A stretch of 46,436 nucleotides of DNA, from assembly GCA_041690835.1 (NCBI GenBank), contig JBEPVY010000001.1, forward strand, positions 1 through 46,436, written 5' to 3'. Source of the stretch: Vulcanimicrobiota bacterium (GTDB lineage Bacteria > Vulcanimicrobiota > Vulcanimicrobiia > Vulcanimicrobiales > Vulcanimicrobiaceae). Under the pieces are notes generated by a model. That model did not search any database, was not told the origin of the DNA, and worked only from the letters and a program-made list of their open reading frames with translations. The translations under genes were made by a program, and so were the position numbers. Below, one piece after another: positions 9,928 to 37,546 of this stretch (position 1 is the stretch's first letter; every line of letters starts with the position of its first letter).

Positions 9928-9938
9928 GGATGGACTCC

Positions 9939-11429
9939 TTAGCGGGTACGGATGGTAAACGACCACGATTTCGAGGTGACGTTGCCTGCCAGGTCCGCGG
10001 CCTTGACGGTCACGTGCACGACGCCGTCGGGATACGGAACGACCGGGACGTAGTGGACGAAGCGCGCGGTACGGACCGAGCTCGCGGTGATGTCGTGACC
10101 GTCGACGATGATCCGGACGGAGGATGGATTGACCGGGACCGCGTCCGAAACGAACGTCGCGTAGAGCGAGGGGCGCGAACTATTGACGACCGCGCCTTCG
10201 TCCGGCGCGAAGTCGCCGATGCCCGGAGGCGAACTCGAGGCGGAGATGCTCTCCGGCGCCTGCCGCATGTACTCGGAGCCGCCCGAGCGCAGGTGCCCGA
10301 TGATCGGCACGTCCGCGAAGTTCGCCCCGTTCGGAATGCGATACGAACCGACGTAGGTGCCCGGCTCGCGCTCGCTCATGCCGAGGCCGAGGACGTAGGG
10401 TCCGACATCGAATTGGGCTGCGCCCGCCGCCGTCCCGCGAAGCGTGACGGTAAGCAGATCGTTCGCGCGGAGCGGGTGGGTCGCGCTGGTCCCGACCGAT
10501 GCGATCGCCGACGGCGCGCCCGTATCCGCAAGCGCGCGGCCGGCCAGTACTTCGCGCACCTCGTTGGTGGCGACGTTATACCGCACCGCGACGCTGTCGC
10601 CCGCGTGCAAGTCGTCGATCGTCGCAGCGGTTCCGTTGATCGAGACGCGGGTGTTGCGCCCCGGAACGATGATATGACCATCGGCGAGGACCATCTGCCC
10701 GCTCGCAACGGCCGCGACCGTTCCGACTCGCGAGCCGAACTGATCGACCACCCGATCCGCCCGCGCGAGGCTCGCGCCGAAGAGATGGGCGTAGTCGCCC
10801 GGGCGCACGTCGGTCAGCTCGCCGGGAACGGTCACGTTCGCGTTCACGTCCTCGAGCAGAATGGTCGCGTTCGGCGCGATCGGGGTCGTGCGGATCGAGG
10901 CGTTATATGAGAGCGTCACCGTCGGCGGGTCCGAGTCGACGTCGACCGCCGTGACCGTACCGACCTGCTCGACGCGCTTGGCAGACCGAGATATGCCGTT
11001 CCCCGAGCGCCCGATCAACTGCGAGACGACCGTGACCAACGCCGCCTTGCGATCGAACGACGCTTGCGAGCCGAGGACGTCGGTGAAGAAGCGGAGCGGG
11101 GCGTAGAGCACGTTTTTGATCTCGACCGGTGCGGCATCCAGGGGCGTCGCATCGCCGTCGATATCGGCACTGCGGCTGCCGAGTTGCAAGGTCACCGTCT
11201 TGTACCCGACGTGGGTGACGATCCGCTTGCCGTCCTGCGCGAAGTCGAGACCGAGCGCTTCGATGATGCGCCGCACCGGGACGAGCAGATGCCCGGCGAC
11301 CATCCGCGGCGGCGGATCGATCGCAAGCCGCTCGCCGTTGATGACGATGCCGATCTTGGCCGTCTTGGATGCGCCCGGAGCGGCGCCCAGCAACAGCGCG
11401 CACGCCGCGACGAGTGCGAGCGTTCTCAT
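9939..11429 (-). CDS. Secreted protein with two copper-amine-oxidase N-terminal-like (stalk) domains and a C-terminal Ig-like region
   Basis: The ATG at 11429 forms an ATGA overlap with the upstream stop and gives the signal peptide MRTLALVAACALLLGAAPGASK. Two repeats have the CuAO-N pattern (INGERLAIDPPPRMVAGHLLVPVRRIIEALG; IDGDATPLDAAPVEIKNVLYAPLRFFTDVLG). The C-terminus (VHVTVKAADLAGNVTSKSWSFTI) resembles Big-type domains. Confidence 0.7.
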   Translation of the reverse strand: MRTLALVAACALLLGAAPGASKTAKIGIVINGERLAIDPPPRMVAGHLLVPVRRIIEALGLDFAQDGKRIVTHVGYKTVTLQLGSRSADIDGDATPLDAAPVEIKNVLYAPLRFFTDVLGSQASFDRKAALVTVVSQLIGRSGNGISRSAKRVEQVGTVTAVDVDSDPPTVTLSYNASIRTTPIAPNATILLEDVNANVTVPGELTDVRPGDYAHLFGASLARADRVVDQFGSRVGTVAAVASGQMVLADGHIIVPGRNTRVSINGTAATIDDLHAGDSVAVRYNVATNEVREVLAGRALADTGAPSAIASVGTSATHPLRANDLLTVTLRGTAAGAAQFDVGPYVLGLGMSEREPGTYVGSYRIPNGANFADVPIIGHLRSGGSEYMRQAPESISASSSPPGIGDFAPDEGAVVNSSRPSLYATFVSDAVPVNPSSVRIIVDGHDITASSVRTARFVHYVPVVPYPDGVVHVTVKAADLAGNVTSKSWSFTIRTR

Positions 11430-17119: not shown

Positions 17120-17158
17120 GTCATCCCGAGCGTAGCGCAAAGCGCGTAGTCGAGGGAC
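17120..17158. repeat. 39-nt REP/MITE-like repeat unit, solo copy
   Basis: GTCATCCCGAGCGTAGCGCAAAGCGCGTAGTCGAGGGAC matches the reverse complement of 21717-21755 at 38/39 positions. It matches 21657-21691 apart from two 2-nt indels. It is intergenic, between rpmE and prfA. Confidence 0.85.
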
Positions 17159-17231: not shown

Positions 17232-17510
17232 CTAAGCTTCCGCGGTCGCCTTCGAGGATTCTTTCGCGGCCTTGCGAGCGGCGGCTTCTTCTTGCTTCTG
17301 CTTCGCCAGAATGGCGCGCTGGTTGAACTTGTCAACCCGGCCGGCGGTATCGATCAGCTTTTGCTGACCGGTGAAGAGCGGATGGCAAGCCGAGCAGATC
17401 TCGACCGAGATCGTTTTCATCGTCGAGCCGGTCGTAAAGGCGCTACCGCAGGCACAATGGACGGCGGCTTCGGGGTACCAGGTGGGGTGGATCTTGTCTT
17501 TCACAGCCAT
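17232..17510 (-). CDS. rpmE: 50S ribosomal protein L31
   Basis: [30 protein letters not shown]...[29 protein letters not shown]. The GTG at 17504 would give the more canonical MKDKIHP N-terminus. Confidence 0.95.
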
Positions 17511-17513
17511 ACG

Positions 17514-17541
17514 ATTATACCAGGCCTGGCAAGGGGGGCAA
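17514..17541 (-). promoter_or_regulatory. Sigma-70-like promoter with extended -10, abutting the rpmE start codon
   Basis: The minus strand reads TTGCCC (17541-17536), a 16-nt spacer, then TGgTATAAT (17522-17514), then CGT and ATG. No SD lies between the -10 box and the start codon. Confidence 0.55.
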
Positions 17542-17842
17542 GATTGCTACCTAAGTGGCAGCCGAATCTGCCGGCGAGCGTCGATTTCTGGCGATCGAGC
17601 GGGCGCTCCGCGTAACTTCTGCCACGGCTTCTGCGTTCTTTACTACGTCGCAGTGGCGGCCAGAAAAACGTCTCGCCGTGCGAGCGCTCTTCATCCCCAG
17701 AACGAATCCCCGGCATCCCTTAAGGATGACACGGTCCAATTGGATCCGACCTCCCACACCCAAGACGAAAGTGAACACATTGCAGCCAGCCCCGCGCCCG
17801 GCAAACAAGGACCGCGAGCCCTCGAACTCCAAGGCAGGGCCC

Positions 17843-18463
17843 GTGAAGTACCGATCGTTATTCGTAGCCGGCGTGGTCGCGTCGGCCGCCCTTGCTTTGT
17901 CCGTGGTGACCACGTCGCTTGGCGGATCGCCCGCGGCCGCCGCCACGGCACCCCCGACTCCGCCGCCGCTCCCGGCCTCGACCTCGGCTCCGGCCCCGGT
18001 CGGAACGCCGGCCGCCAATCCGTACGCCGTTCCGACCTTGACGCCCGTCAGCTCGCCGAATCCCGGCAAGACGCCGGCGCCGCCGGCGGGCTTCCGCAAG
18101 GGGATCGAGGGCGTCTGGGAAGTGCAGATCCAACGCGGCGCAGCGACCGAGTACGATCACTTTCAACTCAAGCAGGATCAGAACGCGATCACGGGCTTCT
18201 ACCTGGACACGGATAAGAAGAAATTCCCGCTCGCCGGATCCCTCGACGGCAAGACGATCCGCATCGTGGTGACGTTCGCGGACGGAACGACCGCGACGTT
18301 CACGGCCCAACTCGACGGGACGACCGACATGCTCGGGCTGATGCTGACGCCCAAAGAATCGACGCCGTTCACCGCGGCGTATCGTCCGAAAGAGAGCTTC
18401 TTCGACAACATCAACCCGTCGCCGGGCGGCCTCGGCGGTACCGGCGGGCGCCCGCCGAAGTAG
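17843..18463 (+). CDS. Hypothetical secreted or membrane-anchored protein (Pro-rich linker plus small beta-rich domain)
   Basis: The GTG at 17843 is preceded by AAGGCAGGG and gives VKYRSLFVAGVVASAALALSVVTTSLG, a signal peptide or anchor. A PAPT-rich linker follows, then GIEGVWEVQIQRG...ITGFYLDTDKKKFPLAGSLDGKTIRIVVTFADGTTATFTAQLDG. An alternative in-frame ATG at 17726 would add a 39-aa cytoplasmic tail. The track start at 17555 is unlikely. Confidence 0.6.
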   Translation: MKYRSLFVAGVVASAALALSVVTTSLGGSPAAAATAPPTPPPLPASTSAPAPVGTPAANPYAVPTLTPVSSPNPGKTPAPPAGFRKGIEGVWEVQIQRGAATEYDHFQLKQDQNAITGFYLDTDKKKFPLAGSLDGKTIRIVVTFADGTTATFTAQLDGTTDMLGLMLTPKESTPFTAAYRPKESFFDNINPSPGGLGGTGGRPPK

Positions 18464-18487
18464 CGCCCTTCGAGCCCTTCGAGAAAA

Positions 18488-18516
18488 GAACGCGCCGCCT
18501 ATGTAGCGGCGCGTTC
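18488..18516 (-). terminator. Intrinsic terminator for leuCD, possibly bidirectional
   Basis: A perfect 11-bp stem GAACGCGCCGC/GCGGCGCGTTC with a 7-nt loop. On the minus strand it is followed by UUUUCUC. The leuD stop codon (18499-18501) lies in the loop. The converging plus-strand gene ends at 18463. Confidence 0.7.
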
Positions 18517-19011
18517 TGCTAGGCGGCGTTCGACGTACGGTTGCAGACCGCCGGCGTCGATGAGCGCCTGCATGAACGGCGGAAACGCCGCCGCCTGGAA
18601 CTGCGTGCCCTTGGTGATGTTCCGCACGACGCCGGTCGAGGGTTCGACCTCGATCTCGTCGCCCGCCGAAATACCGTCGACCGCCTCGGGGGATTCGAAG
18701 ATCGGCAAGCCGATGTTGAGCGCGTTGCGATAGAATATCCGTGCGAACGACTTCGCGATCACGGCCGACGTGCCCGAGCCCTTGATCGCGATCGGTGCGA
18801 CCTCGCGGCTCGAACCGCATCCGAAGTTCGAATCGGCCACGATGATGTCGCCGGGCTTCATGCGCGCGGTATATTCCGGATCGAGTCCTTCGAGCGCGTG
18901 TTTGCCGAGCTCGACCGGATCGACCAGGTTGCAGTACTTGCCGGGGATGATCACGTCCGTATCGACGTTCTTACCGTAGGTGTGCGCGTGTCCGCGGAGC
19001 GATGATGCCAT
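18499..19011 (-). CDS. leuD: 3-isopropylmalate (or homoaconitate) dehydratase small subunit, type 2
   Basis: 170 aa. HTYGKNVDTDVIIPGKY...GDIIVADSNFGCGSSREVAPIAIKGSGTSAVIAKSFARIFYRNALNIGLP. The 1-nt TAATG junction with leuC is at 19011. Confidence 0.9.
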   Translation of the reverse strand: MASSLRGHAHTYGKNVDTDVIIPGKYCNLVDPVELGKHALEGLDPEYTARMKPGDIIVADSNFGCGSSREVAPIAIKGSGTSAVIAKSFARIFYRNALNIGLPIFESPEAVDGISAGDEIEVEPSTGVVRNITKGTQFQAAAFPPFMQALIDAGGLQPYVERRLAERAAT

Positions 19012-20294
19012 TATGCGTGTGCCAGTTCCATGACGCGAGGGTCGGTGATGATGCCGGTGAGGGCGGATGCCGCGCAGGTCGCGGGCGACGCGAGGTAGAC
19101 TTCGGCGGTGGGCGAGCCCATCCGGCCGACGTAGTTACGGTTGGTCGTCGAGAGGCAGCGCTCGCCGTCGCCGAGCGTGCCCATATGGCCGCCGAAGCAG
19201 GCGCCGCAGCCGGGCGTATTGACGATGCAACCGGCCGATGCGAGGATCGTGAGGATGCCCTCTTGGGCGGCCTGCATCCAGACCTTCTGCGAGCCCGGGT
19301 TGATGATCACGCGCAGGCGCGATGCGATCTTCTTGCCGTCCAGGATCTTCGCGACCACGCGCAGATCTTCGATGTAGCCGTTGGTGCACGAGCCGATGAA
19401 GACCTGATCGAGCGGGATATCGTCGCGGGTGACGTCCGAGACGCCGTGCACGTTGTCGGGCGTGTGCGGACAGGCGATCTGCGGCTCGAGGTTGCCGACA
19501 TCGATCTTGACGATCCGCTCGTAGACCGCATCCGCATCCGAAGCCTCGACGATGAACTTGCGATCGGTGCGTTCTTGGACGTACGCGATCGCCTTGGCAT
19601 CGGCGTGGAAGATGCCGTTCTTGGCGCCGGCTTCGATCGCCATGTTGGCCATGGTGGTGCGACCGGTGATCGAGAGCGCATCGACCGTCGTGCCGTGGTA
19701 CTCGATCGCACGATAGGTCGCGCCGTCGATACCGAGCGTGCCGACCGTCTTGAGCATGATGTCCTTGGCCGAGACCATCTCGCCGAGCTGACCGTCGTAG
19801 ACGATCTTGATGGTTGACGGGACCTTGATCCAGACCTCGCCGAGGATGAACGCGGCCGCGATGTCGGTCGACCCCATGCCGGTCGCGAACGCGCCGAGCG
19901 CGCCGTACGTACACGTGTGGGAGTCGCCGCCGACGATCAACTCGCCGGGCGCGATCAGACCTTCTTCGGGGAGCACGACGTGCTCGATCCCGCCCCGTCC
20001 GACGTCGAAGAAGTGTTCGATCTTCTGATCGATGGCGAAGTCTTTCATCAACTTCGCGATCTTGGCCGACTGCACGTCCTTGGCCGGGACGAAGTGGTCT
20101 TCGACGAGCGCGATCTTGGACGGATCGAAGACGCGGTCGGCACCCTTGATCTGGCGCATGACGCCGATCGAGACGGCTGCCGAGAGCTCGTTGGCGAGCA
20201 CCAGGTCGACTTTGGCGTTGATGATCTGCCCGGGTTCGACGCGGTCGAGGCCGGCGTGGCGTGCGAGGATCTTTTCGGTGAGCGTCATTCCCAT
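19011..20294 (-). CDS. leuC: 3-isopropylmalate (or homoaconitate) dehydratase large subunit, type 2
   Basis: MGMTLTEKILARHAG...VDLVLANE...GGDSHTCTYGALGAFATGMGSTD...IGSCTNG...PGCGACFG (aconitase-family Fe-S cluster cysteines). I chose the start at ATG 20294, or possibly 20288. The track extension to 20417 is non-homologous. Confidence 0.9.
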   Translation of the reverse strand: MGMTLTEKILARHAGLDRVEPGQIINAKVDLVLANELSAAVSIGVMRQIKGADRVFDPSKIALVEDHFVPAKDVQSAKIAKLMKDFAIDQKIEHFFDVGRGGIEHVVLPEEGLIAPGELIVGGDSHTCTYGALGAFATGMGSTDIAAAFILGEVWIKVPSTIKIVYDGQLGEMVSAKDIMLKTVGTLGIDGATYRAIEYHGTTVDALSITGRTTMANMAIEAGAKNGIFHADAKAIAYVQERTDRKFIVEASDADAVYERIVKIDVGNLEPQIACPHTPDNVHGVSDVTRDDIPLDQVFIGSCTNGYIEDLRVVAKILDGKKIASRLRVIINPGSQKVWMQAAQEGILTILASAGCIVNTPGCGACFGGHMGTLGDGERCLSTTNRNYVGRMGSPTAEVYLASPATCAASALTGIITDPRVMELAHA

Positions 20295-20328
20295 GATGGT
20301 GGAGTTACTGCGGCGAAGGAACGGACTC

Positions 20329-21582
20329 ATGCAAGACCGCTCTTTCGGCTTTGCGACCCGGGCCATCCATGCCGGGACGCCGCCCGACCCCGTCACCGGC
20401 TCGCGCGTCGCGCCCATCTATCAGACTGCGTCTTTTGTCTTCGGCTCGACCGAGCAAGCCGCCGAGCTCTTCCAGCTCCGCTCGTACGGCCATATCTACA
20501 GCCGGATCAGCAACCCGACCGTCGCCGCGTTCGAGGAACGGATGGCCTCGCTCGAGGGCGGGCTGGGTGCGGTCGCGTTCGCGAGCGGCCTGGCCGCCCA
20601 GCTCTGTACCGTGCTCTCGCTCGCTCAGAGCGGCGACCACATCGTCTCCTCGCAGAACATCTATGGGGGCACGGTCACCCAGTTCTCGATCACCCTCAAA
20701 CGGATGGGGATCGAGACGACCTTCGTGCCGGTCGACGACTACGCGGCCATCGCCGCCGCGATCCGGCCGAACACGCGCCTGCTCTTCGCCGAGACGATCG
20801 GTAACCCGTCCGGGACGATCGCGGACCTGCGCAAGCTCGCCGACGTCGCGCACGAAGGCGGCATCCCGCTGGTGGTCGACAACACGTTCGCATCGCCGTA
20901 CCTGGTCCGGCCGATCGAGCACGGCGCCGACCTGGTGGTCCACTCGGCGACCAAGTTCATCTCCGGCCACGGCACCGTCATCGGCGGCGTGCTGATCGAC
21001 GCGGGTGTCTTCCCGTGGGAGAACGGCCGCTTTCCGCTCCTCTCGGAACCGAGCCCCGGCTACCATCAGAAGATCTTCACCGAGACGTTCGGCGAGTACG
21101 CGTTTCTTATGCGGGCACGCGCCGAAGTATTGCGCGATGTCGGCGCCCAGATGTCTCCGATGGATGCCTGGCTGCTCTTGCTCGGCCTCGAGACGCTGCC
21201 GCTTCGCATTCGCGAACACGCGCGCAACACCGAAGCGATCGTCGCGTTCCTCAAGGGCCGGCCCGAGGTCGCTTGGATCAAGCCCCCCGAGATGGGATCG
21301 ATCTTCACGTTCGGCATCGTCGGCGGGCGCGACGCCGGCCGGCGCTTCATCGATGCGCTCGAACTCTGGAGCCACCTTGCCAACGTCGGTGACGCCAAGT
21401 CGCTCGTCATCCACCCCGCCAGCACCACCCACTCGCAACTCTCGGACGACGAGATGCGCAACGGCGGCGTCGAACCCGAAGCCGTCCGCCTTAGCGTCGG
21501 CCTAGAGGACGTCGACGACCTCATCTGGGACCTGGACAACGCGCTCAAAGCCGCGTGCGTCGCAGAAACGGTGGAAGCGTGA
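20329..21582 (+). CDS. metY: O-acetylhomoserine/O-acetylserine sulfhydrylase (PLP-dependent, Cys/Met metabolism family)
   Basis: The internal ATG at 20329 (AAGGA 9 nt upstream) gives MQDRSFGFATRAIHAG...APIYQTASFVF...YSRISNPT...VVDNTFASPYLVRPIEHGADLVVHSATKFISGHG (PLP lysine in SATK)...VIHPASTTH. The 99-aa track extension is antisense shadow of leuC. Confidence 0.9.
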   Translation: MQDRSFGFATRAIHAGTPPDPVTGSRVAPIYQTASFVFGSTEQAAELFQLRSYGHIYSRISNPTVAAFEERMASLEGGLGAVAFASGLAAQLCTVLSLAQSGDHIVSSQNIYGGTVTQFSITLKRMGIETTFVPVDDYAAIAAAIRPNTRLLFAETIGNPSGTIADLRKLADVAHEGGIPLVVDNTFASPYLVRPIEHGADLVVHSATKFISGHGTVIGGVLIDAGVFPWENGRFPLLSEPSPGYHQKIFTETFGEYAFLMRARAEVLRDVGAQMSPMDAWLLLLGLETLPLRIREHARNTEAIVAFLKGRPEVAWIKPPEMGSIFTFGIVGGRDAGRRFIDALELWSHLANVGDAKSLVIHPASTTHSQLSDDEMRNGGVEPEAVRLSVGLEDVDDLIWDLDNALKAACVAETVEA

Positions 21583-21603
21583 CCCGCATCGTGAAGGGCC
21601 AAG

Positions 21604-21651
21604 CCCTTGTTGTAACGACGCGCCCCTCCCCTGTTGTAACGACGCGCCCCT
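21604..21651. repeat. Tandem duplication, 2 x 24 nt
   Basis: CCCTTGTTGTAACGACGCGCCCCT (21604-21627) and CCCCTGTTGTAACGACGCGCCCCT (21628-21651) match at 23/24 positions. They lie immediately 5' of the inverted-repeat element. Confidence 0.9.
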
Positions 21652-21656
21652 TCGCT

Positions 21657-21755
21657 GTCATCCCGAGCGTAGCGAAGCGTAGTCGAGGGACGACTCGAGG
21701 CGGTTGCGTTGTGGAGGTCCCTCGACTACGCGCTTCGCGCTACGCTCGGGATGAC
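21657..21755. repeat. Inverted pair of the 35/39-nt REP/MITE-like unit (long imperfect hairpin)
   Basis: The left arm (21657-21691) is GTCATCCCGAGCGTAGCGAAGCGTAGTCGAGGGAC. The right arm (21717-21755) is GTCCCTCGACTACGCGCTTCGCGCTACGCTCGGGATGAC. They are complementary except for two 2-nt bulges, with a 25-nt loop. The element is intergenic, between metY and the CoA-binding protein gene. Confidence 0.9.
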
Positions 21756-21787
21756 AAAGAAGGTCGCTTCGCTCCGGAAGACAAGGC

Positions 21788-22267
21788 ATGATCCTCAACA
21801 CCGTCTCCCAGCGGCGCGACTTGCTCGACCGTTCTAAAACGATCGCGTTGGTCGGCGCGTCGGGGAATCCGATGCGGCCGAGCTACACGGTCTTCTCTTA
21901 TCTCCGCACGCGCACGCGCTATCAGGTAACGCCGATCAATCCGACGATCGCGGCGATCGACGGCGTGACGGCGTTCCCGTCGCTCACGGCCTACGCCGCG
22001 GTACACGGCGCGCCGGATATCGTGGATGTCTTCCGCAAGCCGAGCGAAGTGCTCGCGGTCGTCGATGAGGCGATCGCGGTCGGCGCCAAGGCGATCTGGT
22101 TCCAGTACGGGGTCATCAACGACGAAGCGATCGCGCGCGCCGATGCGGCCGGACTCGAGGTCGTCGTGGATCGCTGTCTCAAGGTCGAGTCGGCACGGTT
22201 CGACGGCGGACTCTCGACCAGCGGTCTGAACAGCGGGCTCATCACCAGCCGGCGCCGTGTCATATAA
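21788..22267 (+). CDS. CoA-binding domain protein (YccU-like)
   Basis: 159 aa. LLDRSKTIALVGASGNPMRPSYTVFSYL...YQVTPINP...VDVFRKPSEVLAVVDEAIAVGAKAIWFQYGVINDEA. This is the typical single-domain CoA-binding (succinyl-CoA-synthetase-alpha-like) protein. Confidence 0.85.
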   Translation: MILNTVSQRRDLLDRSKTIALVGASGNPMRPSYTVFSYLRTRTRYQVTPINPTIAAIDGVTAFPSLTAYAAVHGAPDIVDVFRKPSEVLAVVDEAIAVGAKAIWFQYGVINDEAIARADAAGLEVVVDRCLKVESARFDGGLSTSGLNSGLITSRRRVI

Positions 22268-23354
22268 CCGCGAGACCGCCGAACTCGACGCCGAGATCCT
22301 CGGCGTCATCGGCAAGTGGCACAAGCGCGATCGCGACCTCGGCGAGGCCGAGTTCGAGGATCTCGCCCAACGTATCTTCGCCTACCAGCTGCGCTACGAC
22401 GAACCGTACACGCGTTACTGTGCCTCGCTCGGCGTCACGCCGCACGCACTCCCCGCGACCTGGCGCGACATCCCGGCCGTACCGACCGGTGCGTTCAAAG
22501 AGGCGACCCTGGCGACGTTCGATCCGGAGCGCGCCGTGCTCGCCTTCGAGACGAGCGGGACGACCAAGGGCGTCGGCGGCCGACACTTCATGGACACGCG
22601 CGCACTCTACGACGGATCGCTCCTGGCCGGCTTCGATCGCTTCATGCTTGCCGACCTCGATGGCGGGAAGCGCCTGCGCTACTTCAACTTCGTGCCGAAC
22701 CCGGCCGATCGGCCGCAGTCCTCGCTCGGGTACATGATGGGGCGCGTCTGCGCGGAGCGCGGCGACGGTCAGACCGGTTGGTATCTGCGCGGCGACGATC
22801 TCTTCGTCGAGGCGTTCCTAGCCGACGCGAAAGCGGCGATCGCCGATGGCGCCCCCGTCTGCATCGCGGGCACGGCATTCGCCTTCGTCCAGCTCTGCGA
22901 CGAGCTTGCCAAGCGCGAGATCGCGCTTGCGTTCGCGCCGGGTTCCCGCGTGATGGAGACCGGCGGTTTCAAGGGCCGCAGCCGAGTCGTCACCCGCGAC
23001 CAGCTCTACGCATCGATCGGCGCGTGTTTCGGCATCCCCGCCGAACGCATCGTCGCCGAATACTCGATGACCGAACTCTCCTCGCAGTGGTACGACACCG
23101 GTCCGACCCGCGTCAAACATGCGCCGCCGTGGCTTCGCGCGAAGGTCGTGGCAGCGGACGGCAAGCTCGTACCGGACGGCATCGTCGGCGCGCTCGTGCA
23201 CGTGGATCTCGCCAATCGTGGCTCGTGCATCGCGGTCCAGACCGAAGATCTCGGCGCGATCGTCGACGGCGGGATCGTCTTGATCGGGCGCGAGCATGGC
23301 GCGGAACTGCGCGGCTGTTCGCTCGATGCCGAAGCGTTGCGCACGACCCGATGA
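22257..23354 (+). CDS. LuxE-like acyl-protein synthetase (ANL superfamily)
   Basis: 365 aa with a GTG start that overlaps the upstream gene by 11 nt. Motifs seen: RIFAYQLRYDEPYTRYCASLGV, FETSGTTKGVGGRHF (ANL P-loop-like), METGGFKGRSR, EYSMTELSSQ, and a C-terminal ELRGCSL (Cys354, 23316-23318). The pattern matches the LuxE family as I know it. Confidence 0.8.
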   Translation: MSYNRETAELDAEILGVIGKWHKRDRDLGEAEFEDLAQRIFAYQLRYDEPYTRYCASLGVTPHALPATWRDIPAVPTGAFKEATLATFDPERAVLAFETSGTTKGVGGRHFMDTRALYDGSLLAGFDRFMLADLDGGKRLRYFNFVPNPADRPQSSLGYMMGRVCAERGDGQTGWYLRGDDLFVEAFLADAKAAIADGAPVCIAGTAFAFVQLCDELAKREIALAFAPGSRVMETGGFKGRSRVVTRDQLYASIGACFGIPAERIVAEYSMTELSSQWYDTGPTRVKHAPPWLRAKVVAADGKLVPDGIVGALVHVDLANRGSCIAVQTEDLGAIVDGGIVLIGREHGAELRGCSLDAEALRTTR

Positions 23355-24577
23355 ACGGAACCCTGGCCGACGTTCCGGTCCGCGCCATCCTGCGCGGACT
23401 CGCCGACGCCGCCAAGCGCTGGGCCGACGCCGACTTCCCGCCGCGCGTACGAGTGCTCGAAGCCATCGTCGCCCGGACCGGCTACACGCTCCCGGTCGTC
23501 GAGTACGCACTCGACCGGCTCTTCGAGACCATCACCGAACCCGCACTGACGGCGACCATCGTCTCTGAACTCGGCTCGCTCGATGCGCTCGACGGCTTCG
23601 TCGCCCGCAAAGGGCGCTCGCCGGCGCGCGCACTCCCGGTCGGACCGGTCTGCGTCGTCTCGAGCCGCACCACCATCGGGGTCGCGATTCCGGCGGCCGT
23701 CTTCGCGCTCTGCGCCAAGTGCGATGTGGTGGTGAAAGACCGTGAGGATCGCCTCGTCTCGGCCTTCTTCGCCTCGCTCGTACAGGAGCACGATGCATTT
23801 GGAACCGCCGCGCGGGCCGAGACCTGGAGCGGCTCGCACGATGCGCGCGATCTCTCCACATTCGCAAGCGTCGTGGCGTACGGGCGGAACGATACCCTCG
23901 CAGAGATCCGCGCCGCCTGCGCTCCCGAAGCGCGCTTCACCGGTTTCGGCGCACGCGCGAGCATCGGCTACATCCCACGCGAAGCACTCGTCGACGATCG
24001 CGCCGCCGCCGCGCTGGCCGAAGGTGCCGCTCGAGATCTCGTGCTCTACGAATCGGAAGGCTGCCTCTCGCTGCATGCGCTCTTCGTCGAGCGCGGCGGA
24101 CACATCGTGCCCGACCGGTTCGCCTTGCTCCTCGCGGAGGCGCTCGAACGCGCCCACGTCGAGTTCCCTCCCGGCGAGCGCGGTGCCGGAGCATCGGCCC
24201 GCTTGGGCAGCGCTCGTGCCCTCGCCGCCTTCCGCGCCGCCGGCGGTGCCGGCACCGTCTACGGTGACGGGTCGGCGCGCCATCTGCTCGTCCTCGATCC
24301 GCCCGCAAGCGATCCGCCCCTGCTATTGCCGCGAGCGCTCAACCTCCACATCGTCGATGCTCCGGTAGAGGTCATAGCCTACCTCAAGCGTCACGGCATC
24401 GCCGTTGAGGCGTTGGCCACGAGCGGAAAGCGCGAGGATGTCGTGAAGATGGCGGTCGATGCAGGTGCCGCCCGGATCGCGACCTTCGGTGCGCTCCAGT
24501 CACCGCTGATGGAAGGGAATCACGGCGGACGCCTGCGCGTTGCCGACTATATCCGATGGATGACCGACGACAGATGA
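23351..24577 (+). CDS. LuxC-like acyl-CoA (fatty acyl) reductase
   Basis: The ATG at 23351 forms an ATGA overlap with the luxE-like stop. 408 aa. AILRGLADAAKRWADADFPPRVRVLEAIVARTGYTLPVVEYALDRLFETITEPALTATIVSELGSLDALDGF... follows the LuxC N-terminal pattern. The candidate catalytic Cys is in YESEGCLSLH (Cys238, 24062-24064). The upstream 345 codons of track ORF 22316..24577 are an out-of-frame shadow. Confidence 0.8.
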   Translation: MNGTLADVPVRAILRGLADAAKRWADADFPPRVRVLEAIVARTGYTLPVVEYALDRLFETITEPALTATIVSELGSLDALDGFVARKGRSPARALPVGPVCVVSSRTTIGVAIPAAVFALCAKCDVVVKDREDRLVSAFFASLVQEHDAFGTAARAETWSGSHDARDLSTFASVVAYGRNDTLAEIRAACAPEARFTGFGARASIGYIPREALVDDRAAAALAEGAARDLVLYESEGCLSLHALFVERGGHIVPDRFALLLAEALERAHVEFPPGERGAGASARLGSARALAAFRAAGGAGTVYGDGSARHLLVLDPPASDPPLLLPRALNLHIVDAPVEVIAYLKRHGIAVEALATSGKREDVVKMAVDAGAARIATFGALQSPLMEGNHGGRLRVADYIRWMTDDR

Positions 24578-25896
24578 CCGACGACGACTTCGAGGATCTG
24601 CGCGGTCCGGTGCCGGGCGCGCGCACGCGCGAACTGACGCCGAGCCTGCGCGCGCGCGAGTCGCACAACGTGACCTTCTTCTCCGAGCGCTTTCCGATCT
24701 TCTGGGAGTCGGCGCTCGGCGCGACCGTCACCGACGTCGACGGCAATCGCTACATCGATCTGACCTCCGCCTTTGGCGTCGCCAACGTCGGCCATTCCAA
24801 TCCGTACGTCGTCTCGACGATCGCGGATCAAGCCTCGCGCTTGATGCACGGCATGGGCGACGTCCACCCGACCGAGGTCAAAGCCAAGCTCTTCGACCGG
24901 CTCGCGCAGCTCTTGCCGGCCGAACTCGACAAGGTCTTCCTCGCGACGACCGGCTCCGAGGCCGTCGAGGCGGCGCTCAAGACCGCCATGGTCGCGACCG
25001 GCAAGCACGCCTTTGCGTACTATCGCGGCGCCTATCACGGTCTCTCGCTCGGAACGCTCGGCATCTCCGGCATCGAGAAGTTCCGCGCACCGTTCGCCGG
25101 TGCGATCGCGGGCGACGCGAACGTCGAGTTGACGTACCCGGGCCACTTCGGCGACGACGCTTCCTCTGCCGAGACCGCGATCGCGCGCACCCGCAAGGAG
25201 CTGGGCGCGCGCACCGACCTCGCCGCGCTGATCGTCGAGCCGATCCAAGGACGCGGCGGCACGATCGTTCCGCCGGCCGGCTATCTGGCCGCGCTACGCA
25301 CGCTCTGCGACGAACGCGGCATCCTCTTGATCTTCGATGAGATCTACACCGGCTTCGGCCGGACCGGCACGTGGTTCGCCTTCGAACGCGAGAAGGTCGT
25401 ACCGGATATTCTCTGCATCGGCAAGGCGATGGGCGGCGGCTTCCCGATCAGCGCGGCGATCGCGCGCGAAAAGATCATGGACGCCTGGCCCGTCTCACGC
25501 GGTGAAGCCTTGCATACCTCCACGTACCTCGGGAACCCGATGGGCTGCGCTGCCGCGCTCTCGACCATCGACGAACTCGATCGCCTAGAACTTCCGGCCA
25601 TCGCGGACAGGCTCGGGCACGAACTGGGCGGGCGACTCGAAGAGTTGCGTTCGCATACGATCGTGCGCGCGATCCGCGGACGCGGACTGCTCTGGGGCAT
25701 CGATTTTCCGGACGCGGCATCGGCCGAGATGGTTGTGGTCGAAGGGCTCGCGCGCGGCGTGATCGCGCTACAGGCCGGCCCCGAAGGCAACGTCGTCCAG
25801 ATCGCGCCACCGCTGGTCATCACCAAACGTCAACTCTATCGAGCGATCGACATCCTCGAATCCATCATCGTTACGCTAACGGGGAACTCAAAGTGA
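24574..25896 (+). CDS. Class-III (omega) PLP-dependent aminotransferase (GABA/acetylornithine-AT-like)
   Basis: The ATG at 24574 forms an ATGA overlap. Motifs seen: DVDGNRYIDLTSAFGVANVGHSNP, ATTGSEAVEAALK, IVEPIQGRGG, LIFDEIYTGFGRTG, and CIGKAMGGGFP (PLP Lys284, 25423-25425). Confidence 0.88.
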   Translation: MTDDDFEDLRGPVPGARTRELTPSLRARESHNVTFFSERFPIFWESALGATVTDVDGNRYIDLTSAFGVANVGHSNPYVVSTIADQASRLMHGMGDVHPTEVKAKLFDRLAQLLPAELDKVFLATTGSEAVEAALKTAMVATGKHAFAYYRGAYHGLSLGTLGISGIEKFRAPFAGAIAGDANVELTYPGHFGDDASSAETAIARTRKELGARTDLAALIVEPIQGRGGTIVPPAGYLAALRTLCDERGILLIFDEIYTGFGRTGTWFAFEREKVVPDILCIGKAMGGGFPISAAIAREKIMDAWPVSRGEALHTSTYLGNPMGCAAALSTIDELDRLELPAIADRLGHELGGRLEELRSHTIVRAIRGRGLLWGIDFPDAASAEMVVVEGLARGVIALQAGPEGNVVQIAPPLVITKRQLYRAIDILESIIVTLTGNSK

Positions 25897-26921
25897 GCGA
25901 AGTCTACAAGATCGGCCTGGTCGGAAGCGGCTTCGGCCTCAAGGCCCATCTCCCGGCGCTGGCCGCGCACCCGCGCTTCGAGTGCGTCGCGCTCGCCTCG
26001 CCGAACAGTGCGGGCGCCGCGGCTGCCGAACGCGGCATCCCGCATGCGTTCGCTTCGTGCGACGAGATGCTCGCGAGCGGTATCGCCCTCGACGGCGTGA
26101 TCGTCGCCTCGCCGCCGTTCGCCCACCGCGACGCGGTGTTGGCGACGCTCGAGCGAGATCTCCACGTCCTCTGCGAAAAGCCGTTCGCCCTCGATCTCGC
26201 CGACGCCGAGACGATGCTCGCTGCATCCAAGCAGTCGAAGGCCGCCGCGGGAGTCGTCCACGAGTTCCGCTGGGTGCCGCAGCGTCTCGCGATCAAGGAG
26301 CTCGTCGCCAACGGGCACCTCGCGCCGATGCGCGAGATCGAGATGACGCACCTGATGGGCTTTCTCCGTTTGGATGGCCGTCGTAAACGCGGATGGTGGT
26401 TCGAGAAAGCCCGCGGCGGCGGGATGGCCGGCGCCCTGCTCTCGCACATGATCGACAGCGTCACCTGGATCGCCGGACGTCCGCCCAAGAGCGCGACCGG
26501 CATGCTGCGCACCGCCAACCCGAAACGCGAGGACGCGGCCGGTGAGTTCACCACCGACGTCGACGACGGCGCCTTCGCGCTGATCGACTACGGAGACGGA
26601 TTGATCGCGCGCCTGACGCTGGACGGCACCGCCGCCGTCGAACAGTTCACCCTCGCCGCCCATGCCGAGAACCGGACCGCGATCGCCAGCGGTACGAGCA
26701 TGATGGAGCTCTCGCTCTTCAGCGTCGACGACGAGGAGACGAACGAACTCGACTGCAAGCCGTCGCAATACGCCCGCTTCAAAGCGGTCAACCCGCACGT
26801 CCCGATGCTCATGGACCTCTACGACGAGTGGATCGCCCAGATCGAGACGGGCTCGAGCGCGCTCCCGACGTTCGCAGAGGCCGTCGAAACGCAACGCGTG
26901 CTCGCGGCGATCGGCTTCTGA
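25893..26921 (+). CDS. Gfo/Idh/MocA family NAD(P)-dependent oxidoreductase
   Basis: The GTG at 25893 forms a GTGA overlap. YKIGLVGSGFGLKAHLPAL is the Rossmann motif, and LCEKPFAL is the EKP motif of the family. Confidence 0.85.
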   Translation: MSEVYKIGLVGSGFGLKAHLPALAAHPRFECVALASPNSAGAAAAERGIPHAFASCDEMLASGIALDGVIVASPPFAHRDAVLATLERDLHVLCEKPFALDLADAETMLAASKQSKAAAGVVHEFRWVPQRLAIKELVANGHLAPMREIEMTHLMGFLRLDGRRKRGWWFEKARGGGMAGALLSHMIDSVTWIAGRPPKSATGMLRTANPKREDAAGEFTTDVDDGAFALIDYGDGLIARLTLDGTAAVEQFTLAAHAENRTAIASGTSMMELSLFSVDDEETNELDCKPSQYARFKAVNPHVPMLMDLYDEWIAQIETGSSALPTFAEAVETQRVLAAIGF

Positions 26922-26939
26922 CCGGAACTCCGGAGTTGC

Positions 26940-28538
26940 TTACTCGATCTGCAACGTGAGGATCGCGGCGTCGTCGCTGACGCGGCGGTGACCGATGACG
27001 CGGCGGTAGATGCCGAGGGCGGGATTGGCGCTCGGGTCGGCGCGTTCGGCCTTGAGCGCTAGGCGAAGCGCGCGTTCGCCGTCCTCGGCGTTGCGTTCGA
27101 ACTCGATCAGGCCATCGGTGTAGAGGGCGACCAGCGAGCCGTGTTCGAGTACGACCTCGGTCTGCGTTCCGGTACCGAGATCACGCATGCCGAGCGGCAG
27201 ACCCTCGGCGTGCACTACGTCGATCGTGCCGTCCGCCTTACCGATAAACGGCAACGGATGGCCGGCCTGCGCGTAGCGGAGCGTGCGCGTCGCCGGGTCG
27301 TAGGTGCCGAACCCAGCCGTCGCGATCGCCGAAGGACGTGCGAGCCGCAAAGCGCGATCCGCATGATCGAGCACGCGGGTCGGTTCGAAGAGTTCGATCG
27401 CCGCAGACCGGATGGCCTGGCGGACTTCGCCCATCACGACCGCCGCAGCCAGCCCGTGACCGGTGACGTCACCGATCGAGATGCCGATGGTGCCGTCGGA
27501 CAGGGCGAACGCATCATACCAGTCCCCGCCGACCTGCAGATCGCTCTCTCCCGGGTGATAGTTCCGATGTAGGCGCGCACCTTCCACCGCCGGTAGTGAG
27601 TTCGGCAGCATCGCGTCCTGGAGGGTGTCGGCGACGCGCCGTTCGCGCTGGAACCGGGTCGCGTTCGAGAGAGCCGCCGCGAGACGCCTGCCGATCTCTC
27701 GGGCCAGCCCGATATCTTCGGAGCGATAGCGCCGCCCCGACTCCGCGTAGACCATCGAGAGCAACCCATACGGTACGTCGCCTATCACCAGCGGAACGAC
27801 GATCGACGAGACGGCGCCGATCTTCTCCAACAGCGCGAGATGGTCGGGACCGCGGGCGCCCAATCGGCGAATCGCCGGCGTGACCTCGGGCACCGCGATC
27901 GGTTCGCGCTTCTCGAAGAGATAGTGGATCGCGGGCGCCTGCAGAGAGAACGGAAAGCGTTCCTCGAGTTCGTGCAGGACCGAGGTCTGCGCGGGATCGC
28001 GATGGACGATCGCGAGCGGCACGAACTCGCCGCTCGTCAGCGCGAAGATCTGGCAGTAGTCCGCCATCTGCGGCACGATCAGCTTCGCGAGATCGCGCGC
28101 CAGCTGGGTGGGCTCGAGCGACGCGGCCAACCCGCGCCCCGCTTCGAGGAGAAAGCGTAGCTGCAGCTCGGCACGTTTCTGCTGCTCGATATCGGTGCAG
28201 GTCCCCATCCAAGCCGAGATCTCGCCGCTCGCCGTCCGCATCGGGAGCGCCCGCACGAGGAACCAACGATAGTCGCCGTCCGCGCCCAGCAACCGGAACT
28301 CGGTATCGAACATCTCTCCGGTGCCGAGCGTACCCCCGCGCGCCGAGAGTGCCGTTGCTAGATCGTTCGGATGGACCGCGCGCGCCCAGCCGTCGCCGAC
28401 ACACTCGTCCGGGTGCAGGCCGGTGTATTCGAACCAGCGCGCGTTGAAATACTCCGCCGATCCCTCGGGGTTCGAGATCCAGACGATCTGCGGAATCGCC
28501 TCGGCGATGAGGCGATAGTCGAAGACCTGACCGTACAT
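26940..28538 (-). CDS. PAS-GAF-PP2C (SpoIIE/RsbU-type) serine phosphatase
   Basis: The N-terminal PAS domain reads IPQIVWISNPEGSAEYFNARWFEYTG...WARAVHPND. A central GAF-like region follows. The C-terminal PP2C motifs are VGGDWYDAF, GDVTGHGLAAAVVMG and ALYTDGLIE. AAGGAGG lies 4 nt upstream of the ATG. Confidence 0.85.
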   Translation of the reverse strand: MYGQVFDYRLIAEAIPQIVWISNPEGSAEYFNARWFEYTGLHPDECVGDGWARAVHPNDLATALSARGGTLGTGEMFDTEFRLLGADGDYRWFLVRALPMRTASGEISAWMGTCTDIEQQKRAELQLRFLLEAGRGLAASLEPTQLARDLAKLIVPQMADYCQIFALTSGEFVPLAIVHRDPAQTSVLHELEERFPFSLQAPAIHYLFEKREPIAVPEVTPAIRRLGARGPDHLALLEKIGAVSSIVVPLVIGDVPYGLLSMVYAESGRRYRSEDIGLAREIGRRLAAALSNATRFQRERRVADTLQDAMLPNSLPAVEGARLHRNYHPGESDLQVGGDWYDAFALSDGTIGISIGDVTGHGLAAAVVMGEVRQAIRSAAIELFEPTRVLDHADRALRLARPSAIATAGFGTYDPATRTLRYAQAGHPLPFIGKADGTIDVVHAEGLPLGMRDLGTGTQTEVVLEHGSLVALYTDGLIEFERNAEDGERALRLALKAERADPSANPALGIYRRVIGHRRVSDDAAILTLQIE

Positions 28539-37129: not shown

Positions 37130-37546
37130 GTGATCGCATCGCTCACCCAACGCCGCGGCGTCCGTCAGTTCGTGAAGTTCGCGGTCGTCGGACTCTCCGG
37201 CACGATCATCAACCTGGTCATCTTCACCCTGCTGCAGCGCGTCGATCCGATGCACGCTCGGCCGCTCCACTACAACGTGATCTATACCATCGGCTTCATG
37301 GCGGGCGGCGTCTCGAACTATTATCTCAACCGGATCTGGACGTTCCGCTCGACCGGGCATGCGGTTCGCGAGGGCGCGCAGTTCCTGACCGTCTCCGCGA
37401 TCGCGCTCCTCGTCGCACTCGGACTCGGACTGCTGCTCCACGGCTATCTCGGCTACGGGCACAAGATGTGGCTGGTCGCGACCTTGGGCGGCATCTGCGT
37501 CAACTTCTTCCTGAACAAATATTGGACGTTCAAGCACGTGAACTAG
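37130..37546 (+). CDS. gtrA: GtrA family protein (polyprenyl-phosphate-sugar translocation-associated)
   Basis: 138 aa with 4 TM segments. RQFVKFAVVGLSGTIINLVIF... and C-terminal FFLNKYWTF. The GTG start is 3 nt after the upstream stop. Confidence 0.85.
   Translation: MIASLTQRRGVRQFVKFAVVGLSGTIINLVIFTLLQRVDPMHARPLHYNVIYTIGFMAGGVSNYYLNRIWTFRSTGHAVREGAQFLTVSAIALLVALGLGLLLHGYLGYGHKMWLVATLGGICVNFFLNKYWTFKHVN

Follow-up and report, generated by a model that had tools for sequence, protein, structure and literature searches.

What do LuxE- and LuxC-type genes do in a genome region that has no luciferase, and on which acid do they act? The question is raised by a run of five same-strand genes in a 46,436-nucleotide stretch of DNA (here called the window: positions 1 to 46,436 of contig JBEPVY010000001.1, assembly GCA_041690835.1), a chromosomal region of housekeeping genes from a soil bacterium of the Eremiobacterota (Vulcanimicrobiales). 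Enzymes that spend ATP to reduce a free acid to an aldehyde are rare, and to our knowledge LuxE and LuxC are known biochemically from bioluminescence only. In the window, genes for a LuxE-like acyl-protein synthetase and a LuxC-like thioester reductase are followed by those for a class-III pyridoxal phosphate (PLP) aminotransferase and a Gfo/Idh/MocA-type oxidoreductase (Gfo), and preceded by one for a stand-alone CoA-binding protein. We propose, with a probability of roughly 0.58, that LuxE, LuxC, the aminotransferase and Gfo form a four-enzyme module working on one small carboxylic acid. On this view a conserved housekeeping operon would have taken in the LuxE/LuxC pair together with an aminotransferase and an oxidoreductase dedicated to it.

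A sequence-only reading of this locus had described the five genes as an operon of overlapping frames, and its anatomy is accurate: all five open reading frames (ORFs) lie on the + strand (Table 1), joined by an 11-nt overlap and then by ATGA, ATGA and GTGA junctions; every motif and residue number that it quoted is in its place; and the Pfam families that it predicted (PF13380, PF04443, PF05893, PF00202 and PF01408) are all matched above curated cut-offs in a Pfam profile search. The aminotransferase has an alternative ATG start at 24556, and the start at 24574 is favored because orthologues use the 4-nt overlap. The same reading had found no luciferase, LuxD or acyl carrier protein (ACP); no such family appears among the window's ORFs scanned against Pfam, and tblastn with Escherichia coli ACP gave no match in the window. 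In the ORFs outside the operon the Pfam scans met housekeeping families only, and the window gave no thioesterase or fatty acid synthesis gene.

The two components that would carry out the reduction belong to the families first assigned to them. The LuxE-like protein scores well above the PF04443 cut-off of 24.9 bits and matches the LuxE chain of the Photobacterium phosphoreum LuxC-LuxE structure (7xc6_E, E = 1e-14) over residues 37-335. A cryo-electron microscopy and mutagenesis study of that complex defined an adenylation Lys, an Arg and the Cys of a C-terminal [KR]GCxL motif (PMC9157457). The equivalents of P. phosphoreum Lys238, Arg355 and Cys364 are Lys239, Arg345 and Cys354 in the window, all three invariant across 68-69 LuxE-like orthologues and with the Arg nine residues ahead of the Cys in both proteins; the motifs of the window protein are FETSGTTKG at residue 97, METGGFKGRS at 233 and ELRGCSL, which holds Cys354. 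The LuxE-like protein is a predicted adenylate-forming enzyme in which a C-terminal Cys354 arm takes the place of the ANL C-terminal subdomain. No phage relatives of LuxE were found when they were searched for. The LuxC-like protein likewise far exceeds its PF05893 cut-off (21 bits). Its AlphaFold model (mean pLDDT 91.8) has LuxC (7xc6_A) as the top Foldseek match (TM 0.86, rmsd 2.7), with other aldehyde dehydrogenases at TM 0.59-0.71, while phmmer against the PDB gave no match. The catalytic Cys238 (YESEGCLSLH) is invariant in 87 of 87 LuxC-like sequences.

Orthology to the lux enzymes themselves is a different matter. Both proteins fall more than 10-fold below the NCBIfam fatty-acid equivalog cut-offs, LuxE at 46 bits (NF052244, cut-off 550) and LuxC at 25 bits (NF052251, cut-off 750), and in length the LuxC-like protein falls some 70 residues short of P. 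phosphoreum LuxC. Its subfamily is a compact one: members have ~400-420 residues (~407 aa), share 30-59% identity among 50%-identity representatives and reach 19-36% identity with the closest ordinary LuxC representatives in the comparison.

Do the five genes lie together by chance? With one genome scanned per species, a degenerate pattern found LuxC-like relatives in 438 genomes, the best 80 of them all Eremiobacterota, and the following counts refer to these 80, using only loci with enough flank. The aminotransferase gene is directly downstream of LuxC in 70/71 loci and Gfo is downstream in 60/62. LuxE is directly upstream of LuxC in 54/75 loci and no more than 2.7 kb upstream in 62/68, and a few loci have no LuxE within 10 kb. 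The CoA-binding gene is present at 54/66 loci, metY at 45/60 and a divergent leuC at 39/53. These numbers are more than chance juxtaposition, which the sequence-only reading had named as a way of being wrong, would give. From the locus counts and the loci in which the operon is split, the tightest unit is LuxC-aminotransferase-Gfo with LuxE usually attached, and on this comparative evidence LuxE-LuxC-aminotransferase-Gfo is the predicted functional unit. Gene order, family membership, the conserved catalytic residues and the conservation of the module across genomes are established.

Conservation of order could also come from descent alone, with the enzymes working in unrelated pathways. Almost all of the loci belong to one phylum, the broad synteny reaches as far as the genes for release factor 1 (RF1), CTP synthase, CinA and NadE, and a gene inserted on the opposite strand can interrupt the operon, all of which fits such an account. 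Yet the genes overlap by 4 nt at their start and stop codons, LuxC-aminotransferase-Gfo stays contiguous even where the flanking genes differ, and the LuxE-LuxC-aminotransferase association recurs in other lineages; we therefore hold inheritance without shared function to be very improbable. At the roughly 12 split loci (8668-9939 (-) in locus L010; also L062 and L067), the gene that separates LuxE from LuxC encodes a secreted protein of ~420 residues with a Pro/Thr/Ser-rich tail.

The genome scan was saturated by Eremiobacterota, and other phyla were reached through distant representatives. Two Omnitrophota-like loci (L088 and L089) hold the nearest outgroup of the LuxC-like protein, and their LuxE is 40-41% identical to that of the window; in neighbor-joining trees the Eremiobacterota and Omnitrophota-like LuxE proteins cluster together, apart from the other groups, including the riboswitch-linked group described below. 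Both loci carry a same-strand class-III aminotransferase gene behind genes for glutamate synthase, ferredoxin and a TrxB-like protein, and that enzyme shares 41-43% identity with the window's aminotransferase and, like it, has Leu and a non-Arg residue at the two signature positions (see below). A third locus (L091) has LuxE, LuxC and aminotransferase as overlapping genes; the aminotransferase there is a different class-III type, one in which the Arg is retained. Judged from these neighborhoods, the association of LuxE/LuxC with a class-III aminotransferase has arisen or persisted in at least three lineages, two of them uncultured lineages beyond the Eremiobacterota, and this supports a reading in which acid is converted to aldehyde and then to amine. 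The Gfo gene is absent beside LuxE/LuxC outside core Eremiobacterota in the loci examined.

The aminotransferase itself narrows the choice of substrate. It has the motif FDEIYTGFGRTG at residue 254 and Lys284 in CIGKAMGGG, and all 74 sequences keep the PLP-binding Lys284, Asp255, Glu256 and the GFGRTG motif. Its nearest families are GabT, ArgD, LysJ and PatA, and no NCBIfam model reaches its cut-off. Gln409 sits where PDB relatives (which read RVIPPL, RLLPPL or RIAPPL) have the Arg that binds the alpha-carboxylate, Arg413 in ornithine aminotransferase (OAT); across the 74 orthologues this position is mostly Ser, otherwise Ala, Thr or Gln. Leu157, after the HG motif, corresponds to OAT Arg180, a position occupied by Lys in PigE and PatA and by Arg in LysJ. 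Neither 157 nor 409 is ever Arg in the 74 orthologues, though 106 other residues are at least 97% conserved. By alignment, then, the enzyme is a member of a putative arginine-less subfamily without both carboxylate-binding arginines of GabT/OAT-type enzymes. Their loss would argue against substrates like gamma-aminobutyrate (GABA), ornithine or acetylornithine, and a route through GABA or succinate semialdehyde was rejected for that reason.

The same residues bear on a second alternative, in which Glu, Asp or 2-aminoadipate would be reduced to a semialdehyde and aminated to a diamino acid, in connection with metY and the leuCD-type genes. The families nearest to the aminotransferase, the coupling of the operon to metY, the adjoining aconitase-type leuCD pair and the position of the L088 and L089 aminotransferase behind glutamate synthase genes would all suit this route. 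Against it stand the absence of both carboxylate-binding arginines from every one of the 74 orthologues and the nature of the neighbors: metY and leuCD score as ordinary housekeeping enzymes in profile searches and are absent from 15/60 and 14/53 loci, respectively. We consider the semialdehyde route quite improbable. A lysine or leucine link through the aconitase pair was considered separately and rejected: in profile searches these two genes look like ordinary LeuCD, and many loci lack them.

In the Gfo protein the features of its family are present: a Rossmann GxGxxG motif (GLVGSGFG at residue 8), the Lys of EKP (at 95) and a C-terminal alpha/beta domain (PF01408, PF22725 and PF02894). Gly8, Gly11 and Gly13 are at least 97% conserved, Lys96 is present in 61/62 sequences and Pro97 in 62/62. 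It reaches no NCBIfam equivalog cut-off, and no close characterized relative was found. Its gene holds the operon position that a FabG-like reductase has in related LuxE-LuxC operons, and an oxidoreductase that closes such an operon would plausibly reduce the aldehyde to the alcohol.

The chemistry of the module, its direction and its class of substrate we infer from family chemistry and genomic context. LuxE would adenylate the acid with ATP and load it onto its own Cys354 as a thioester. The flexible LuxE tail would hand the acyl group to Cys238 of LuxC, where reduction with NAD(P)H would give an aldehyde. The dedicated class-III aminotransferase could then convert the aldehyde to a primary amine, and Gfo could interconvert the same aldehyde and its alcohol. 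The sequence-only reading had proposed this acid to aldehyde to amine sequence with an omega-type transaminase at its end. The coupling of LuxE/LuxC to a class-III aminotransferase in 70/71 Eremiobacterota loci and in L088, L089 and L091 supports it in part; a plain omega-amino-acid transaminase is unlikely because both carboxylate-binding arginines are missing. Its other option, a catabolic pathway running in reverse, would be unlikely for an ATP-driven, thioester-forming step.

The most familiar substrate would be a fatty acid, reduced to an aldehyde that would then yield a fatty amine or alcohol destined for an envelope lipid. The canonical LuxE and LuxC use myristate (PMC9157457), and in tambjamine BE-18591 biosynthesis the LuxC-like reductase TabE and the omega-transaminase TabA carry a thioester to a primary amine, dodecylamine (bioRxiv 10.1101/2025.08.11.669332). 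Within the aminotransferase, segment 115-193 finds its best local PDB match in PigE, an enzyme that aminates a fatty-type aldehyde, and Leu157 would fit a hydrophobic substrate. However, genes for a carrier protein, a thioesterase or fatty acid synthesis were not found in the window, the scores of LuxE and LuxC lie far below the equivalog cut-offs, the LuxC-like protein is short, and all the cultured relatives found go with riboswitches and transporters of vitamin type rather than with lipid genes. A fatty acid route is in our judgment unlikely. The fatty or dicarboxylic acids suggested by the sequence-only reading find no support in this comparison, in which cultured relatives lie in riboswitch-controlled operons and another lineage pairs LuxE/LuxC with queD.

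Those cultured relatives offer the clearest view of what such pairs may do. Tblastn searches of plasmids and chromids with LuxE (a LuxC search gave almost the same records) found cultured relatives of both proteins only in Pantoea, Azospirillum, Priestia, Niallia and Lactiplantibacillus, the LuxE proteins being 30-39% identical over their full length with the same C-terminal motif and the LuxC proteins 26-30% identical. The annotated loci share one layout: a transporter, then LuxE, LuxC and a FabG-like short-chain dehydrogenase/reductase (SDR). The transporter is NCS2/xanthine-permease-like in Lactiplantibacillus plantarum and Niallia (which also has ThiW) and an ABC system (ThiY-like) with an NMT1/THI5-like binding protein in Azospirillum and Priestia, and Rfam searches place a thiamine pyrophosphate (TPP) riboswitch immediately upstream of each of these operons (Table 1). 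Taken together with family chemistry, a TPP-riboswitch transporter-LuxE-LuxC-SDR operon would be a complete three-step route from acid through aldehyde to alcohol. Its context, indirect evidence where the window is concerned, suggests that small acids of cofactor type can be handled by LuxE/LuxC pairs outside luminescence. In a third setting, a PVC-like group, LuxE is followed by an MFS gene, a YkuD-like gene or nothing, then by LuxC and by queD (6-carboxytetrahydropterin synthase); the queD of one such locus (L092) scores above the TIGR03367 cut-off. The linkage hints at a pterin or 7-deazaguanine carboxylate as the substrate in that lineage, and riboswitch searches in the QueD-linked loci found nothing.

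The operons of cultured bacteria may also bear on an orphan enzyme. A published hypothesis gives OarX, an SDR of the thiamine regulon, the salvage of carboxyl derivatives of thiamin, of its thiazole or of its pyrimidine; the paper reports only occasional clustering with an "acyl-CoA synthetase", does not mention LuxE/LuxC, and describes genetic tests of carboxyl-derivative salvage in Corynebacterium glutamicum that were negative (PMC11223231). The C. glutamicum oarX operon is oarX-fmnO, with no LuxE or LuxC gene. The SDR of the cultured operons resembles OarX, a likeness that does not imply orthology, and the TPP-riboswitch LuxE-LuxC-SDR operons could explain what OarX is for. Found in culturable bacteria, they make the twenty-year-old question of OarX function directly testable.

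Could the window's module then be a thiamine-fragment salvage system? Here a carboxyl derivative would be reduced to an aldehyde and, by Gfo, to hydroxymethylpyrimidine (HMP) or hydroxyethylthiazole (HET), or would be aminated to an aminomethylpyrimidine. The cultured homologues behind TPP riboswitches, with their ThiW, NCS2 or ThiY-like transporters and FabG-like SDR, point this way, and OarX was proposed to salvage exactly such carboxyl derivatives (PMC11223231). But no TPP riboswitch was found in the window, nor at gathering score in the Eremiobacterota loci L085-L087; the LuxE clade of Eremiobacterota and Omnitrophota-like loci stands apart from the TPP group; the gene co-transcribed with the operon is metY, not a thiamine gene; and the C. 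glutamicum tests were negative, though on an operon without LuxE/LuxC (PMC11223231). Pfam scans of the window's ORFs also found no thiamine-precursor-type transporter and no FabG/OarX-like SDR. We regard thiamine-fragment salvage at this locus as doubtful. In falling order of likelihood, the alternatives to the four-enzyme module on a small acid are thiamine-fragment salvage, a fatty acid, an amino-acid semialdehyde and inherited synteny.

The position of homologous pairs in TPP-riboswitch operons and next to queD favors a small, cofactor-like acid, as does Leu157, which stands in for an Arg or Lys that would hold a distal carboxylate or amine. The substrate of the module is therefore more probably a small acid, nitrogen-heteroaromatic or cofactor-derived, than a fatty acid, as far as context and alignment can indicate. 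A bolder and speculative generalization, in which we place little confidence, is that non-luminous LuxE/LuxC pairs are reductases of cofactor-type heteroaromatic carboxylates and that the Eremiobacterota/Omnitrophota-like branch makes an aminomethyl or hydroxymethyl heteroaromatic. One example would be preQ1 (7-aminomethyl-7-deazaguanine) made directly from 7-carboxy-7-deazaguanine, bypassing QueC and QueF; another would be the thiamine pyrimidine, in its aminomethyl or hydroxymethyl form, made from its carboxylic acid. If either were true, an entire phylum would conserve a new biosynthetic or salvage route to an essential cofactor precursor. Should the substrate be a cofactor fragment of any kind, the module would represent a new salvage or biosynthetic route and a compact acid-to-amine cassette for biocatalysis.

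Several observations weigh against the four-enzyme module. In deep Eremiobacterota lineages the order is metY-yccU-LuxE-LuxC (L087) or metY-yccU-LuxC (L085), and neither an aminotransferase nor a Gfo gene adjoins it; within one phylum the conserved order may in part be inherited synteny. The Arg for the donor's alpha-carboxylate is missing together with the other, so that the aminotransferase may not be an ordinary transaminase; the glutamate synthase neighborhood in L088 and L089 nevertheless hints that glutamate is the amino donor. Rfam searches of window positions 17300-27200 gave no TPP or other riboswitch at E <= 1, and no thiamine or queuosine gene was seen near the operon. The whole branch is known from genes and a predicted structure alone. 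A single in-frame fusion of a LuxC-like protein with a class-III aminotransferase (P0141, 818 aa, on one 4.6-kb Logan contig) was downgraded as Rosetta-stone evidence: it is a singleton cluster and may be either a natural fusion or an assembly frameshift. A further candidate, P0158, looks like a frame-shifted read-through.

How does the module compare with known systems? The sequence-only reading named no characterized pathway of this architecture, and searchable literature agrees, yielding only lux, flagellin islands, TabE/TabA and OarX (a paper on galactosyrin proved a false lead, its lux mentions being to a reporter construct). With P. phosphoreum LuxC-LuxE (PDB 7XC6) the window pair shares both folds, gene adjacency, the LuxE Lys, Arg and [KR]GCxL Cys and the LuxC Cys, but it is ~19-20% identical and misses the equivalog cut-offs, its operon has no luxAB, luxD or luxG, its partners are an aminotransferase and Gfo, and its substrate is probably not a fatty acid. 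With the cultured TPP-riboswitch operons it shares LuxE/LuxC homology and an oxidoreductase in the closing position; unlike them, the window operon has an aminotransferase and Gfo in place of a riboswitch, transporter and SDR, and its LuxE falls in a separate clade. TabE/TabA provides a precedent for a LuxC-like thioester reductase followed by a transaminase that gives an amine, but TabE takes a carrier-protein or CoA thioester, has no LuxE partner and works on a fatty substrate in a secondary-metabolite cluster. The flagellin glycosylation islands of Aeromonas and Enterobacteriaceae also hold non-luminous luxC/luxE pairs annotated by homology only, but in those islands the pair is accompanied by a carrier protein, FabG, AMP-ligase, pse genes and glycosyltransferases, all of them missing from the window operon. 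A LuxE/LuxC carboxylate reductase is thus known in kind, as is a reductase with a transaminase in TabE/TabA; no characterized counterpart was found for the set of partners, for the aminotransferase subfamily without arginines, for the short LuxC subfamily or for their conservation throughout the phylum.

Table 1. Features of the window operon and LuxE-LuxC loci of other lineages. Coordinates refer to the sequence named in the second column.
Feature	Sequence	Position	Strand	Evidence
YccU-like CoA-binding protein, 159 aa	window	21788-22267	+	PF13380 CoA_binding_2, 126 bits
LuxE-like acyl-protein synthetase, 365 aa	window	22257-23354	+	PF04443 LuxE, 47.5 bits
LuxC-like thioester reductase, 408 aa	window	23351-24577	+	PF05893 LuxC, 126 bits
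Class-III PLP aminotransferase, 440 aa	window	24574-25896	+	PF00202 Aminotran_3, 353 bits
Gfo/Idh/MocA NAD(P)-dependent oxidoreductase, 342 aa	window	25893-26921	+	PF01408 (81.6 bits) with PF22725, PF02894
metY, O-acetylhomoserine sulfhydrylase	window	20329-21582, start inferred	+	TIGR01326, 556 bits (cut-off 495)
Long near-perfect hairpin, REP or MITE type	window	21640-21771	+	inverted repeats, folding energy
Operon, TPP riboswitch upstream	Pantoea L093	7778-11399		66.6 bits (Rfam)
Operon, TPP riboswitch upstream	L. plantarum L094	1390-6321		67.6 bits (Rfam)
Operon, TPP riboswitch upstream	Azospirillum L095	6674-12800		59.6 bits (Rfam)
Operon, TPP riboswitch	Priestia L096	6770-12777		49 bits, just under gathering score (Rfam)
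Operon, two TPP riboswitch copies	Niallia L097	4754-10346		85 and 72.9 bits (Rfam)
PVC-like LuxE-LuxC-queD locus	L090	5392-9796
PVC-like LuxE-LuxC-queD locus	L092	6946-9805
PVC-like LuxE-LuxC-queD locus	JGI 3300075153 contig

The first gene of the five appears to belong elsewhere. It encodes a YccU orthologue, a stand-alone CoA_binding_2 domain with ~45% identity to E. coli YccU, and had been thought to deliver or hold an acyl-CoA for the reductase. That role is not upheld: the gene is missing from 12/66 loci, and in Sinorhizobium meliloti a YccU-like gene adjoins metY (L098, 3965-5701) with no LuxE/LuxC annotated nearby. From this one independent example and the absences, the CoA-binding gene is probably a partner of metY and not of the reductase, and it is dispensable to the LuxE-LuxC-aminotransferase-Gfo unit. 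Most relatives have metY at the head of the operon (upstream in the 45/60 loci counted above), translationally coupled to the next gene in a six-gene unit; in L003, L010, L085 and L087 it overlaps the CoA-binding gene. The two are probably a separate functional pair, co-transcribed as operon neighbors. The adjacency of YccU and metY in an alphaproteobacterium and in Eremiobacterota also suggests an unrecognized functional pair in homocysteine synthesis.

The window differs from its relatives here in having a 206-bp spacer with a very stable hairpin between metY and the CoA-binding gene. The hairpin is ~130 nt long (dG -92.8 kcal/mol, z = -8.9), and its 13-mer GTCATCCCGAGCG occurs in 4 copies in the window, against 0.34 expected, one of them at 17120-17132. 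Because orthologous loci have overlapping genes at this place, it looks like an inserted REP (repetitive extragenic palindromic) or MITE-like (miniature inverted-repeat transposable element) sequence. A tandem 24-nt repeat lies next to it, at 21593-21640.

The remainder of the window is in keeping with an ordinary chromosome. Its G+C content is 63-69%, and its housekeeping genes include floA/nfeD, alpha-2-macroglobulin, pyrG, prmC, prfA, leuCD, metY, cinA, nadE, glpX, amj and proS. The closest genome by the LuxC-like gene is a Vulcanimicrobiales metagenome-assembled genome (MAG) at 89% identity, and the LuxC-like protein has hundreds of close relatives, those with names being Eremiobacterota (Baltobacteraceae, Vulcanimicrobiaceae, Tumulicola and Lustribacter). 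Only one cultivated member of the phylum has been reported (PMC9758169). Six MAGs labeled Acidoferrum, Acidiferrales or Verrucomicrobiia (L007, L008, L020, L028, L038 and L073) carry an Eremiobacterota-type operon at 59-63% identity; from this identity, and from the flanking synteny where the upstream flank is present, their labels are probably wrong. Material labeled Dongiaceae has the same synteny and identity range, and that label looks unreliable.

Downstream of the operon, a gene for a PAS-GAF-SpoIIE (PP2C) phosphatase (26940-28538 (-)) is convergent with the Gfo gene across an 18-bp gap; relatives do not keep it at that position and have a subtilase there instead. A 572-aa ORF at 44624-46342 (-) and a 1.5-kb stretch at 37546-39060 have no Pfam match, and the region at 36-40 kb, with its A+T skew and lower G+C, is unlike the rest of the window in composition. 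Finally, a small secreted protein of no Pfam family (18038-18412 (+) in the window; 7564-8076 in L085, 1229-1876 in L087 and 5872-6384 in L086) is encoded near leuD or upstream of metY throughout the phylum, with histidine-rich ends in L085 and L087.

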